Shown one piece after another: positions 56,127-60,472 of a DNA stretch of 64,000 nt. The position numbers and the translations under genes were made by a program. The stretch's first letter is position 1. Every line of letters begins with the position of its first letter. This DNA comes from an uncultured bacterium (lineage in GTDB: Bacteria; Patescibacteriota; Patescibacteriia; Magasanikbacterales; GWA2-37-8). The notes beneath the pieces were generated by a model that searched no databases, was not told where the DNA came from, and worked only from the letters and a program-made list of their open reading frames with translations. The stretch lies in NCBI GenBank assembly GCA_937903605.1, contig CALCZC010000028.1, positions 6,680-70,679 on the forward strand, read 5' to 3'.

Positions 56127-57956
56127 ATGTCCGAAAATCCAAATTTTCTCAAAAACAAATATAATCTTCACACCAGTGAGGAAGTTTTGCGTGCCAAAAA
56201 ACGCACAGAAAGTAAAACCGGAGAAAAGGTCAAAGAAGACCCGTCTTCGCTTATTCAAAATTATCTAAACCGTTTCAAAGAAATTACTGACCGCAAAGAC
56301 CCTACTGACAGAGAACAAGGTATAGAAGCTCTCAAACGCGTCCTTTATCGTGACAGTATTATCAAGCCCGAAGATATCCCACAGTCATATTGGGAAGCCC
56401 AAGCTCGTTTAGCTCGTGAACAAGGTCATGGCGATATTGAGATTACAGAGGAAATGAAAGACAGTGGTGCGGAAATACTTATCACTGATCAAAAAAGCAG
56501 TTTAGATACTTGGATTGATTATATGGCATCTCAAGATGCCACTTATCCAGACTGGCTTAAATATTTTGCCATTCGCAGTGTTTTGAATTTGGGCGAATAC
56601 GATAAAGAAAAAAAAGTTTTTTCCAAACGATCCAAAGGCACAGTCAAACCATTTCCCGACCTTAACCGTGAAGCTCTAGCTTACGTTTTGGATGCCGTGG
56701 AGAAAAAATATCAAAAGCAAGGTATTGATTTGGAAAATCTTAACGAAGAAGATAAAAAAACTTTTGATAAAATACTCAAAGAAGAAAATTTCGGCAAGCT
56801 TTACGCTTTTGCTATTGATAAAGTTACTCCGACCGAAGTTAATCTCTTAACTGTAACAGAAGGGCAATGGAAAAAATACGATAAAGACAGCGACCATATG
56901 CCTTTGGTAAAATCTCTGCAAGGACACGGCACCGGTTGGTGTACAGCCGGCGAAAGTACTGCTCAAACCCAGCTTCAAGGCGGAGACTTTTATGTTTATT
57001 ACTCTCTTGATAAAGACGACAAACCAACTATTCCTCGTGCCGCAATCAGAATGCAAGAAAACAAAATTGCCGAGGTTCGTGGAATAGGGCCTGACCAAAA
57101 TCTTGATCCCTACATTGGCGAAGTGGTTAAACAAAAAATGACTGAATTTTCTGATGGACAACTTTATGAGAAAAAGGCGGGAGATATGAAATTCTTAACT
57201 CAAATAGACAAAAAAACCCAAAATCAAGAACCACTAACAAAAGAAGAACTAAATTTTCTTTATGAAGTAGATGAAAAAATACAAGGTTTTGGTTATAAAG
57301 ATGATCCAAGAGTAAAAGAAATCAGAAACCAAAGAAACCCGGAGCAAGATATGTCCATAATTTTTGATTGTACCCCTGACCAAATCGCCCACAATCAAAA
57401 AGAAGTGAACGAAAACACCAAAGCCTATGTTGGCGAACTATTTCCCAATATTTTTCAAACTCTCCAAACTGAACATATTTACACTGAATTTCCCGAAGGT
57501 AAAATCAGAAGATATAATATTGAAATTGGTGGCAAAAGCAAAAAAGAACTGGAAGTGGAAATGAAAAAACAAAAGATTACCATTAGTAGTTATGCGCAAG
57601 ATATGTTAAACAGTTCGGATTTCGCCACTTCAAAAAAAGCAGAAAGAGAAACCCTTATCCGTTTAAGAGTCGCTGATCTCAAAACAAAAAATCAAACCAC
57701 GGATGAAATATTTGCTAAAGCCAAAGAATTGGGCCTTGAACTCTGTCCTCCTGAAACCGGACCGCAATTTAGATTGCAAAACCCAACTCAAGAATATATT
57801 ATAATTGGAATGAAACAAATCGCCGACCGTTACGACTATCCGAGCGTGTTCAACTTGGACAGCGATAGCGATGGTCTGTGGCTCAACGGCATCATTGCCC
57901 GTCCTGGCCTCAGGTGGAATGATGACAGCAAGTTCGTTTTCCGTCTTCGTAAGTGA
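56127..57956 (+). CDS. DGR target (variable) protein, 609 aa, variable region at the extreme C-terminus; no obvious signal peptide
   Basis: C-terminal ...YPSVFNLDSDSDGLWLNGIIARPGLRWNDDSKFVFRLRK is encoded by the VR. Ends with TGA. Confidence 0.8.
   Translation: MSENPNFLKNKYNLHTSEEVLRAKKRTESKTGEKVKEDPSSLIQNYLNRFKEITDRKDPTDREQGIEALKRVLYRDSIIKPEDIPQSYWEAQARLAREQGHGDIEITEEMKDSGAEILITDQKSSLDTWIDYMASQDATYPDWLKYFAIRSVLNLGEYDKEKKVFSKRSKGTVKPFPDLNREALAYVLDAVEKKYQKQGIDLENLNEEDKKTFDKILKEENFGKLYAFAIDKVTPTEVNLLTVTEGQWKKYDKDSDHMPLVKSLQGHGTGWCTAGESTAQTQLQGGDFYVYYSLDKDDKPTIPRAAIRMQENKIAEVRGIGPDQNLDPYIGEVVKQKMTEFSDGQLYEKKAGDMKFLTQIDKKTQNQEPLTKEELNFLYEVDEKIQGFGYKDDPRVKEIRNQRNPEQDMSIIFDCTPDQIAHNQKEVNENTKAYVGELFPNIFQTLQTEHIYTEFPEGKIRRYNIEIGGKSKKELEVEMKKQKITISSYAQDMLNSSDFATSKKAERETLIRLRVADLKTKNQTTDEIFAKAKELGLELCPPETGPQFRLQNPTQEYIIIGMKQIADRYDYPSVFNLDSDSDGLWLNGIIARPGLRWNDDSKFVFRLRK
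57823..57953 (+). repeat. DGR variable repeat (VR)
   Basis: Aligns without gaps to 58254-58384. All 15 differences fall at positions where the TR has A (VR has G, T or C there). Confidence 0.9.
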
Positions 57957-58253
57957 TTTTTAAAAAATTTATAACTTTCGGTTACTTTGATTCTTTTGTT
58001 CTTGGATTCTTATAAAAAATTTGCTATAATTTAGTTAGTTTGATTATTTTGAAAGGTCATGGCTTTTCAACATCTCTCTGGCAATTGTAAATTGAGTTAT
58101 AAACGGTTACGGCTTTTTACAGAGTGATTTATATATTGTCTAACAAAAAGAAAACACTTGGTATGGAAAACTGGCGGATTTTAGATCCCAAATAAAATAC
58201 AGCCCAATGTTATTTTCACATAGGCAGTGTAATAGAAGGTTTTCCATATAAAA

Positions 58254-58384
58254 CCGACCGTAACGACAATCCGAACGTGTTCAACTTGAACAGCAATAGC
58301 GATGATCTGTGGCTCAACAACAACAATGCCCGTCCTGACAACAGGTGGAATGATGACAACAAGTTCGTTTTCCGTCTTCGAAAG
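58254..58384 (+). repeat. DGR template repeat (TR), non-coding, Asn-codon (AAC)-rich
   Basis: ...AACTTGAACAGCAATAGCGATGATCTGTGGCTCAACAACAACAATGCCCGTCCTGACAACAGGTGGAATGATGACAACAAG... Adenine-rich counterpart of the VR. Confidence 0.9.
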
Positions 58385-58401
58385 TTTTATCTTTTCCACG
58401 C

Positions 58402-58749
58402 CTACAAAGCGTGGTTTTTCTTTTCCGGATTGTTTAAACTATTTTTCCAACCGCCAAACATTTTCCCTATTTCTTCTATTTTAGAAGAAATTGTTTCATA
58501 GTGGGTGTGCGCGATAATTTTTCCTTCCCAAGCAGTGTAAATTAAAAATTTCAGAGTATCCAGTATTACTAAACAATTTGTTATTTTTTCCGCTTTATTT
58601 TCTTTATTGCTAAAATATGTCAAATAAGCAAGCTCCATCAAATCTAAAAATTTATTTTCAATTCGCGCGCCCAAGGTATAGCGTGTGCTTTTTTGCATAT
58701 GAATAGCGATATTAATCCACGACAAATAAAGTTCTTTGACCTTGTTCAA
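58402..58749 (-). CDS. avd: Avd-like accessory variability determinant (four-helix-bundle protein)
   Basis: ~100-115 aa. C-terminal KIEEIGKMFGGWKNS resembles Bordetella phage Avd ...IAEVGRILGSWIARV. Helical and basic. TTG start at 58749, or internal ATG (M17). Confidence 0.5.
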   Translation of the reverse strand: MNKVKELYLSWINIAIHMQKSTRYTLGARIENKFLDLMELAYLTYFSNKENKAEKITNCLVILDTLKFLIYTAWEGKIIAHTHYETISSKIEEIGKMFGGWKNSLNNPEKKNHAL

Positions 58750-58832
58750 GATAGAAGCGTTGTTGAAAGTGCGGGGGGGGGGGTAGAAGATGTGATCATA
58801 AATATAATGAAATTATTTCTAAAGGAAATTTA

Positions 58833-59783
58833 TTGGTTTCTTGGCAGGAATTTTTATCCGACAAGAAAGAACGTAAAGATATAGCCGAGTTTATGATCAA
58901 TTTCTCCGGTAATATTTCAAATTTGTGTAATGAATTAAAAGAAAAAACATATAAACATAATGATTATATTGCATTTAAAATAAACGATCCCAAACCGCGC
59001 GATATTCACAAAGCGAGTGTACGAGACAGGGTTGTCCATCACGCCATTTATAGAATTTTGTATCCGTATTTTGATAGACAGTTTATTTTTGATTCTTATT
59101 CCTGTCGGATTGATAAAGGAACACACCGGGCGATTGGTCGTTTTGAGAATTTTGCGCGAAAAGTTTCCTTAAACAGCAAGCGGACGGTTTGGGTTTTGAA
59201 ATGCGATATCAGAAAATTTTTTGCCAATATTGATCATCTTATTTTGAAAACAATATTAGACAAACATATTTTAGATAAAGATATTGTCTGGCTTTTATCG
59301 CAAATAATAGACAGTTTTAACACAGCGGGTAAAGAAAATGTCGGCTTGCCACTTGGAAATCTAACCTCTCAGCTTCTGGTTAATATTTACATGAACGAAT
59401 TTGATCAATTTGTTAAACGAAAATTAAAAATCAAATATTATGTTCGTTATGCCGATGATTTTATCATTTTACACGAAAATAAAAGTTTTTTACAGGATTT
59501 GATTTTGGAAATAAGCGAATTTTTGGAAACAAAATTGAAACTTTTATTACATCCAAAAAAAGTTAGTATAAAAACTTTCAATTCGGGTGTGGATTTTTTA
59601 GGTTGGGTCTGTTTTTCAAACCATAAAGTATTGCGGACAAAAACAAAGAGACGAATGTTTAAAAGAATAGAGAAACATAAAACTAAAGAAACATTGGCTT
59701 CATATTTGGGGATGTTGAGTCATGGAAATGCGTATAAATTGAGTAAGAAGATAAAATTTATAACTCCAACCCCGCTTGTTTAA
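58833..59783 (+). CDS. DGR reverse transcriptase; N-terminus unresolved (frame open from 58767, no in-frame ATG; possibly fused to ORF 58693 through the poly-G tract)
   Basis: RDRVVHHAI (RT motif 2 region), GLPLGNLTSQLLVNIYMNEFD (DGR-specific motif 4), YVRYADDFIIL (YxDD). Confidence 0.85.
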   Translation: MVSWQEFLSDKKERKDIAEFMINFSGNISNLCNELKEKTYKHNDYIAFKINDPKPRDIHKASVRDRVVHHAIYRILYPYFDRQFIFDSYSCRIDKGTHRAIGRFENFARKVSLNSKRTVWVLKCDIRKFFANIDHLILKTILDKHILDKDIVWLLSQIIDSFNTAGKENVGLPLGNLTSQLLVNIYMNEFDQFVKRKLKIKYYVRYADDFIILHENKSFLQDLILEISEFLETKLKLLLHPKKVSIKTFNSGVDFLGWVCFSNHKVLRTKTKRRMFKRIEKHKTKETLASYLGMLSHGNAYKLSKKIKFITPTPLV

Positions 59784-59851
59784 AAGTGCCATGGTATTTT
59801 ATTTTACAAAAGCTGATTTTAATGATAAAATTTTTGCATTATTTATCAAAT

Positions 59852-60472
59852 ATGAATATTTACCTTGACGAATCATACAATTTACAAAAAACAAGAGGTA
59901 AAATGTTTGTCAGTATCAACGGTTTTGCTGTTTTTGACGACCGACTATTGAGAAAACGTTGGAAAATTGTAAGAAAGGATTATGTACGATCAAAAAGACG
60001 TGTTCATGCGACCGACTCTTATTTTGAAGAATTAAGAAAAAAAAGTTTGAAGTTATTAAACAGAAATGATATTAGCGTTTTTTCGGTATTCCAAGTAATT
60101 CAGGAATTGCCGTATGATTATTTTGATAAAGAGGGCATAAAGTTTGATTTTTTGTATGCCTCTTTACTGAAAAAGTTGTTTGTGGAAATGTCCTTGGGAG
60201 AGTATAAAAAAATAAGAATATTTATAGATGCCAGAAAACACAAAGGTGGAAAATTGGGAGAAAAAAAGTTTCAAAAAGAGATTGAAGATTTTTTAAAAAA
60301 TAAATTTTTCAACACCGTTTGTATTTACAAAGCCACCCCGTCATATTTGGATGTTTTGGTTGAATTATCCGATTTTGTTTCTAATACTTTTTATAGGGAA
60401 TATCAAAATAATTCTACGCATGTATTTAAAGATGCCGGCATTAGATTTATACAAATCAAAAATCCGCTGTGA
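59852..60472 (+). CDS. DUF3800-family protein
   Basis: N-terminal MNIYLDESYN matches the DUF3800 IY(I/L)DES signature. Confidence 0.5.
   Translation: MNIYLDESYNLQKTRGKMFVSINGFAVFDDRLLRKRWKIVRKDYVRSKRRVHATDSYFEELRKKSLKLLNRNDISVFSVFQVIQELPYDYFDKEGIKFDFLYASLLKKLFVEMSLGEYKKIRIFIDARKHKGGKLGEKKFQKEIEDFLKNKFFNTVCIYKATPSYLDVLVELSDFVSNTFYREYQNNSTHVFKDAGIRFIQIKNPL

Follow-up and report, generated by a model that had tools for sequence, protein, structure and literature searches.

The window, by which we mean the whole 64,000-nucleotide stretch of DNA analysed here, contains a complete DGR consisting of a DGR-clade RT, an adenine-specific TR/VR pair and an Avd. A run of exactly 11 G lies where its divergent avd and RT genes meet. 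Based on the comparisons described below, we consider it probable that this G tract is a slipped-strand contingency switch on DGR diversification, placed within the coding sequences of both genes.

The cassette around the tract is composed of the following features:
56127-57956: target gene, with VR at its 3′ end.
57822-57953, + strand: VR.
58253-58384, + strand: TR, a 132-nt match to VR.
58396-58414, + strand: terminator-like hairpin followed by a T run (TTTTTCTTTT), directly 3′ of TR.
58402-58749, − strand: Avd core, 115 aa from TTG 58749 (Pfam bAvd, 2e-14).
58784-59783, + strand: RT core ORF (Pfam RVT_1, 2.8e-22), its frame open from 58767.

TR and VR differ at 15 positions over 132 nt, every one of them at a TR adenine. 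The bAvd match (58405-58749, − strand) aligns residues 9-104 with profile positions 12-106 of 107. The RT sequence includes the DGR motif LGNLTSQ, and its best solved relative is the Bordetella-phage DGR RT 8ub7_A (E 1.8e-37). The gene order, namely target with VR, TR, opposite-strand avd and RT, corresponds to the TR-(avd)-RT architecture B3, as described by Wu et al. 2018 (PMC5758913). The hairpin after TR is GC-rich, overlaps the avd stop codon and resembles an intrinsic terminator for the TR RNA; a comparable hairpin and T run is present in two related loci, L003 and L004. Since it directly follows TR, the TR RNA and the RT mRNA are probably separate transcripts. Downstream of RT, an ORF at 59786-60472 (+ strand) has a sub-threshold match to DUF3800 (E 9.5e-4, 20.3 bits vs. 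a cut-off of 21), and its start varies with the gene caller across assemblies, giving 189 or 206 aa.

The repeat itself was determined by direct count:
58773-58783: simple-sequence repeat, G11 on the + strand and C11 on the − strand (10, 11 or 12 G elsewhere).

The GC content of the window is 36.9%, and its longest other run of G or C is 6. The number of G runs of at least 11 expected in the window is 0.001 with independent bases and 0.006 under a first-order Markov model, which upholds the view of an earlier, sequence-only reading of this DNA that the run is extreme. Homopolymers of about 7 or more are slippage-prone, and the G11 run is both longer than this and unusual for the genome. If translated, the tract encodes Gly in RT and Pro in the long form of Avd. 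Six nt past the tract lies a start-stop mini-ORF (ATG TGA, 58790-58795, + strand), with a Shine-Dalgarno-like spacing from it. This ATG 58790 was rejected as an RT start, as the TGA comes immediately next and the mini-ORF is off the RT frame at every tract length.

Three further features define how the two genes approach the tract:
58699-58772, + strand: RT leader, ATG 58699 plus 24 codons (MNSDINPRQIKFFDLVQDRSVVES).
58769-58771, + strand: GTG, an in-frame RT start at 10 G (MRGGGRRCDHKYNE..., 337 aa; P0123, L165).
58750-58799, − strand: Avd leader, from ATG 58799 (the complement of the RT His codon) through the poly-C tract.

On the + strand, the RT frame is open from 58767, where it reads KCGGGGRRCDHKYNEIISKGNLLVSWQEF. 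The first ATG, GTG or TTG in this frame is TTG 58833, as the sequence-only reading had stated, and an RT started there would lack the conserved segment HKYNEIISKGNL. CAT at 58797-58799 encodes the conserved RT His. The same reading had described an upstream ORF in the +1 frame that runs into the tract. Such an ORF exists and reads MHMNSDINPRQIKFFDLVQDRSVVESAGGG into the tract (..MNSDINPRQIKFFDLVQDRSVVESAGGG), but the start assigned to it, "ATG 58693", is a TTG, and the ATG is at 58699. The leader that begins at this ATG joins the RT core frame only at 12 (or 9) G, and in the 11-G allele it ends at TAG 58882-58884. Upstream of the repeat, 39 of 46 related loci have a start codon in the +1 frame (‘frame B’, ..KIEAL..) and 1 of 46 in the +2 frame. 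G11 joins the RT core to the startless frame, and thus the window's allele has no route to an RT with the conserved N-terminus.

On the − strand, 12 C places the Avd leader MITSSTPPPRTFNNASI in front of the Avd core for a total of 132 aa. With 11 C, the leader stops at TGA 58748-58746, which overlaps TTG 58749. An additional internal Avd ATG is found at 58698. With 12 G (or 9 G) in the window, both long ORFs are in frame (RT of 361 aa and Avd of 132 aa), and the window's 11 G breaks both. An alternative code with TGA read as Gly was also considered and rejected: it rescues no frame, because a TAA comes next, and the neighbouring genes are normal under table 11.

The alignment with 8ub7_A begins at query residue 30, i.e. 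just past the tract. This indicates that the leader and the repeat are an add-on to the canonical RT. When the 361-aa RT was modelled with AF2, pLDDT stayed below 50 over residues 1-39, leaving the leader without confident structure.

The sequence-only reading had predicted, by frame arithmetic, a 12-G allele in which the upstream ATG is fused to RT. Such an allele was found in the same strain, in P0001/L002 and in P0124/L167; the arithmetic was correct, and the fused protein is 361 aa from ATG 58699, not ~364. P0001, obtained by protein search, begins MNSDINPRQIKFFDLVQDRSVVESAGGGGRRCDHKYNE and is 100% identical to the window RT. Over 7086 bp, its contig, L002 (NCBI GCA_036788035.1), matches the window except for one gap, which is the extra G of its tract (12 vs. 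11). Further alleles were drawn from the 90% identity cluster of the window RT:
L165, Logan SRR3330212: G10, no other difference; RT called from GTG 58769, 337 aa.
L001, ERZ724084: G11, no other difference from the window.
L166, ERZ724078: G11, 2 SNPs vs. the window.
L167, ERZ724082: G12, 1 SNP vs. the window.
L168, SRR24236060: G9, in frame; a different strain, ~85% identical, with Avd called at 131 aa and beginning MITSSTPPRTFNNASILNKVKELY.

The G10, G11 and G12 alleles are thus represented by consensus sequences from six assemblies, with flanks that differ by 0-2 mismatches over 6-7 kb. When more allelic pairs were sought among the 160 fetched loci, just duplicates of identical tract length were obtained. 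VR is identical across the 10-, 11- and 12-G alleles, so a link between phase and diversification is not visible in them. Only three SNPs occur among the alleles of this strain over ~7 kb, and all of them lie in the 103 nt shared by avd and RT. The first, 58695 G>T, abolishes TTG 58693 and substitutes K for Q in Avd. The second, 58747 C>A, converts the Avd TTG 58749 to TTT, and the third, 58797 C>A, replaces the conserved RT His with Asn and the Avd ATG with ATT. Their confinement to the overlap suggests selection on DGR expression.

The length differences could in principle be sequencing or assembly artefacts, in which case the true tract would always be 12 G and in frame, and the 10- and 11-G contigs would be low-coverage homopolymer miscalls. 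Long G homopolymers are indeed error-prone, and the coverage of the ENA contigs is just 8-14x. Against this stand three consensus lengths in six assemblies from several samples, together with the distribution of the repeat among related loci, to which we return below.

Whether the two genes are actually read through the repeat was assessed in the window's family, which comprises 51 independent loci, all with an ATG exactly 18 nt before a conserved P-x-Q (M..N.NPNQISLFD). In all 51, RT and avd overlap head-to-head with their codons in exact antisense register, and the RT ATG is invariant (49/49). The RT leader frame contains no stops in 1175 codons from ATG to repeat, vs. 54.7 expected from avd codon usage outside the overlap. 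When conditioned on the Avd amino acids, TTA, CTA and TCA codons number 0 vs. 40.7 expected (P ~2e-18). Antisense stops in the RT-frame codons flanking the repeat are similarly depleted, with 1 observed vs. 14.4 expected (P ~8e-6). In addition, 50 of 50 family loci encode the RT His with CAT, compared to 62% CAT elsewhere in RT, and the complement of this CAT is the ATG that opens the Avd frame. The third-position entropy of Avd is 1.39 bits outside the overlap and 0.94 bits inside it.

Frame status follows the same pattern. Both long ORFs are intact in all 21 in-phase loci (two Avd ORFs being cut by contig ends), with lengths of 126-143 aa for Avd and 355-376 aa for RT; both are truncated in all 30 out-of-phase loci (10-67 codons). 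The four family loci that have no repeat (L009, L015, L025 and L115) are all in frame. The comparison of orthologous RTs that the sequence-only reading had named as a check therefore finds them, in these four, uninterrupted from the conserved ATG and not starting at the TTG/Leu position. Taken together, stop avoidance, the His CAT codon, the entropy and the frame status indicate that avd and RT overlap head-to-head by ~35 codons each, with the repeat in the middle of both. Since the antisense codon register is kept on either side of the tract, any length that is in frame for one gene is also in frame for the other.

These results bear on the start of Avd as well. TTG 58749, with the tract simply upstream, is a candidate main start in that it aligns with the ATG from which some Avds of the sister family begin, but the tests of stop avoidance and of CAT/ATG speak against it. 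ATG 58799, across the tract from the core, is thus the more likely start in light of these tests, with TTG 58749 a possible secondary one. The earlier statement that the tract lies ~25 nt upstream of Avd holds as a distance, since 23 nt separate it from TTG 58749 on the minus strand, but the tract is inside the Avd ORF when this is read from ATG 58799. Likewise, the proposal that tract length gates RT translation, Avd transcription or both is supported as far as gating is concerned; with the tract inside the ORF, the effect on Avd is most likely translational, not transcriptional.

In order to place the window among its relatives, 160 related loci were anchored on the conserved RT Trp codon. 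Half of these (80) are from GTDB species representatives, mostly labelled Patescibacteria/CPR MAGs, and the other 80 are from metagenomes. A repeat is present at the avd-RT junction in ~140 of ~155 related loci, and ~15 are without one. In nearly all loci it lies 55-106 nt upstream of the Trp codon. About 90 loci have G7-13, with a mode of 10, and 46 have a GA dinucleotide tract of 10-37 nt. The following loci carry other units at the same junction:
L054: (TGATTGC)11, at about 2330-2410.
L152: (CTGG)9.
L145: (GT)8.
L012: composite, (GA)n then G10.

The heptamer of L054 contains stops in every frame and is therefore not coding on the + strand. Runs of G≥8 or (GA)≥5 number 136 in the 29 kb around the junctions vs. 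4 in the remaining 701 kb of these loci, a density ~800-fold above that of the rest. As judged from these loci, the junction repeat is a family-wide feature of Patescibacteria DGRs and not a peculiarity of one genome. The repeat units differ, the site is orthologous and the RTs are only 57-70% identical, which argues for selection for a mutable tract as such. Additional tracts occur away from the junction, namely G10 and G10 in L068 (+988 and +2837 from the RT Trp codon) and C12 in L145 (−910), and these could mark further phase-variable genes beside the DGR.

Several 90% identity clusters contain RTs with identical bodies that differ in the number of RE repeats or in the upstream frame. Examples are the series MRERE-/MRERERE-/MRERERERE-SKRRSGH, a series of 369, 371 and 373 aa, and the frame-A vs. 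frame-B versions of RT in Woesebacteria and Falkowbacteria. Four ENA contigs (L169-L172) carry GA tracts of 15, 21, 27 and 27 nt; three of them have 0-1 mismatches in their flanks, and L170 has 14 in its right flank. These lengths differ only by multiples of 6 nt and so keep the frame. Each of the four contigs begins at the same base, 165 nt upstream, where the usual avd sequence is absent.

It should be noted that four contigs (L098, L023, L031 and L162) begin or end at the repeat and that L029 ends in an artefact-like run of 48 C, which is consistent with assembly breaks at a heterogeneous or hard-to-sequence tract. Although these breaks would also be expected if the length differences were artefacts, the 46 loci in which GA tracts of 10-37 nt occupy this site, the length variants on identical RT bodies and the retention of the repeat at the junction across ~140 loci argue otherwise. 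Furthermore, the phases are even over ~97 independent loci, so errors would be needed in two thirds of the assemblies. We therefore regard the artefact explanation as very unlikely.

The same distribution can be set against neutral decay, in which the repeat is a mutational liability and out-of-frame alleles are dying DGRs with no reversible or adaptive switching. Three observations are as decay would have it: in about 70% of the loci with a repeat it is out of phase, the three SNPs that are the only ones to separate the window's alleles strike start or conserved codons in the overlap, and VR is unchanged between alleles. A liability would not, however, be expected to persist with varied units in ~140 loci at this level of RT divergence. 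Moreover, the out-of-frame loci keep both ORFs otherwise intact, TR/VR differences are adenine-specific only, and repeat units inside ORFs are always stop-free on both strands. Neutral decay thus appears quite unlikely.

The other poly-G loci, which form a sister family, are organized differently on the RT side. In 60 of 79, the RT ATG lies 4-34 nt (median 13) after the tract, and RT there excludes the repeat. On the Avd side, the frame that begins at the ATG opposite the RT His codon (CAT in 50 of 52 loci) meets no stop before the tract in 51 of 52, and the 543 codons concerned contain 1 stop vs. ~24 expected. The repeat thus appears to be within the avd ORF throughout, and additionally within the RT ORF in the window's family. 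Tract lengths in the sister family cluster tightly around a single mode of 10 (range 7-13) and show no 3-nt periodicity, and a −10-like TAnnnT directly follows the tract in 25 of 77 loci, about a third. Loci such as L018, L046 and L081 have a palindrome TTTTGCCA..TGGCAAAA upstream of the tract and, past it, a TAnnAT box followed by the RT ATG ~7 nt on. If xTGGCA is read as the −35, the G tract and a further 5-8 nt make up a spacer of 16-18 nt, an arrangement that only about a third of the sister-family loci fit. As suggested by these motifs, the sister-family tract may serve in addition as the promoter spacer of an RT mRNA that is nearly leaderless.

This raises the alternative that the tract is a transcription- or translation-initiation element, i.e. 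a −35/−10 spacer or an SD-like purine run, and that the ORF extensions are incidental. The position of the sister-family RT ATG, the TAnnnT boxes and the unimodal tract lengths are all in line with such a role. In the window, the tract is flanked by TTGAAA (58763-58768) and TAGAAG with a spacer of 15-16 nt, a further point in its favour (the spacer being counted there as 15 nt), but the −10 candidate is without the final T, and the promoter scan gave no hits above those in shuffled controls. In the window's family, stops are avoided in both frames across the tract, and the members that have no repeat are in frame. The sister family, too, keeps the Avd-sense frame open through the tract, and GA tracts of 10-37 nt are unfit as a fixed promoter spacer. 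For the window's tract, an initiation element is thus an unlikely explanation.

Among repeat-bearing loci, the three phases number 16, 19 and 10 in the window's family and 11, 22 and 19 in its sister family. With ~27 of 97 loci in frame, near one third, there is no enrichment of this state, which is compatible either with a fast switch at mutational equilibrium or with frame mattering little. Another reading is recoding, with polymerase slippage or ribosomal frameshifting restoring the frame, the tract tuning dosage and all alleles yielding some RT and Avd. The lack of in-frame enrichment among consensus sequences would agree with this, as would the capacity of long homopolymers to induce transcriptional slippage. 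The GA dinucleotide tracts of 46 loci are nevertheless poor slippage substrates, and we consider recoding highly improbable.

Our preferred reading remains that of a switch. The G tract would be a hypermutable repeat inside the 5′ coding parts of the overlapping divergent RT (ATG 58699) and Avd (ATG 58799) genes, and slipped-strand mispairing during replication would alter its length. At 12 G (or 9 G), the full-length RT of 361 aa and the long Avd of 132 aa would be made. At 11 G, both genes would be broken and the RT with its conserved N-terminus left startless, and at 10 G, RT could start at GTG 58769 with the long Avd broken. Cells would in this way flip reversibly between a VR-diversifying state and a state that keeps the current variant. 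Given that Avd could be made from TTG 58749 and that RT has alternative starts in one of the two ‘off’ phases, the switch may be leaky or three-state. What the sequences show directly is the anatomy of the locus, the protection of both frames, the variation in tract length between assemblies and the retention of a repeat at this site throughout the family; the rate of switching, effects on protein levels and on retrohoming and any adaptive value are inferred. The broader proposal, which we favour by somewhat more than even chances, is that many Patescibacteria DGRs have a heritable and reversible master switch, a slippery repeat in the avd ORF (and in one large family in RT too) that turns hypermutation on and off stochastically. 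The rival readings (artefact, promoter/RBS element, neutral decay and recoding by slippage) together account for about one third of the probability for the window's tract.

A term search of Wu et al. 2018 (PMC5758913) gave nothing on an avd-RT overlap, a junction repeat or promoters. Among the texts searched, which included large DGR surveys other than Paul et al. 2017 (the main one on CPR DGRs), none linked DGRs to repeats, frameshifts or phase variation.

If the proposal is correct, a repeat switch on Avd and RT would be a simple genetic answer to the question of how mutagenesis stops once a useful variant has arisen. To our knowledge, no other prokaryotic system hypermutates proteins in a targeted manner, and DGRs are particularly frequent in the CPR/Patescibacteria, which are ultra-small and host-dependent. 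A contingency locus placed over such a diversity generator would allow a lineage to explore variants and then to lock one. It would also explain environmental DGRs that look inactive and gene calls of ‘truncated’ RT and Avd, and the phase of the tract would be an allele readable directly from metagenomes and correlatable with VR diversity. For annotation, the consequence is that gene calls at these loci systematically misplace the starts of RT and Avd and that contigs tend to break there.

Translational phase variation through intragenic repeats is known from the poly-G tracts of Campylobacter jejuni surface-structure genes and of Neisseria hmbR/hpuA, and from the mod methyltransferase genes (phasevarions). 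As in those contingency loci, the repeat described here is near the 5′ end of an ORF, its length shifts the frame and varies between isolates or assemblies, and ‘off’ states are common in sequenced genomes. Unlike in those loci, one repeat is in two opposite-strand ORFs, what would be gated is a targeted hypermutation machine and not a surface or modification gene, and the hosts are uncultivated Patescibacteria, in which switching is predicted from assembled sequences.

Promoter repeats offer a second comparison. In Haemophilus influenzae, hifA/hifB have (TA)n in overlapping divergent promoters, and Neisseria porA/opc have promoter-spacer homopolymers. Like the hifA/hifB repeat, a single repeat between divergent genes would co-regulate both. 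In the sister family, whose RT ATG follows the tract, the repeat could plausibly act on RT through a promoter or 5′ UTR, as in the promoter-repeat systems. However, the hif repeat is non-coding and changes −35/−10 spacing, whereas the repeat of the window's family is coding in both genes and would act via the reading frame.

The BPP-1 DGR (bRT-Avd; PDB 8ub7) shares with the window a homologous RT, an Avd and an adenine-specific TR/VR pair. It differs in that bRT starts at the position just past the tract, the 28-residue leader and the repeat being an add-on of the Patescibacteria family, and in that its avd is co-oriented with brt, whereas avd in the window is opposite to RT. We know of no repeat switch in the BPP-1 DGR. 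By analogy, the mechanism itself would be classical slipped-strand phase variation that resembles hifA/hifB; what appears new is that the gated system would be a DGR, that one repeat is in two head-to-head ORFs on opposite strands and that the arrangement is spread across the Patescibacteria.
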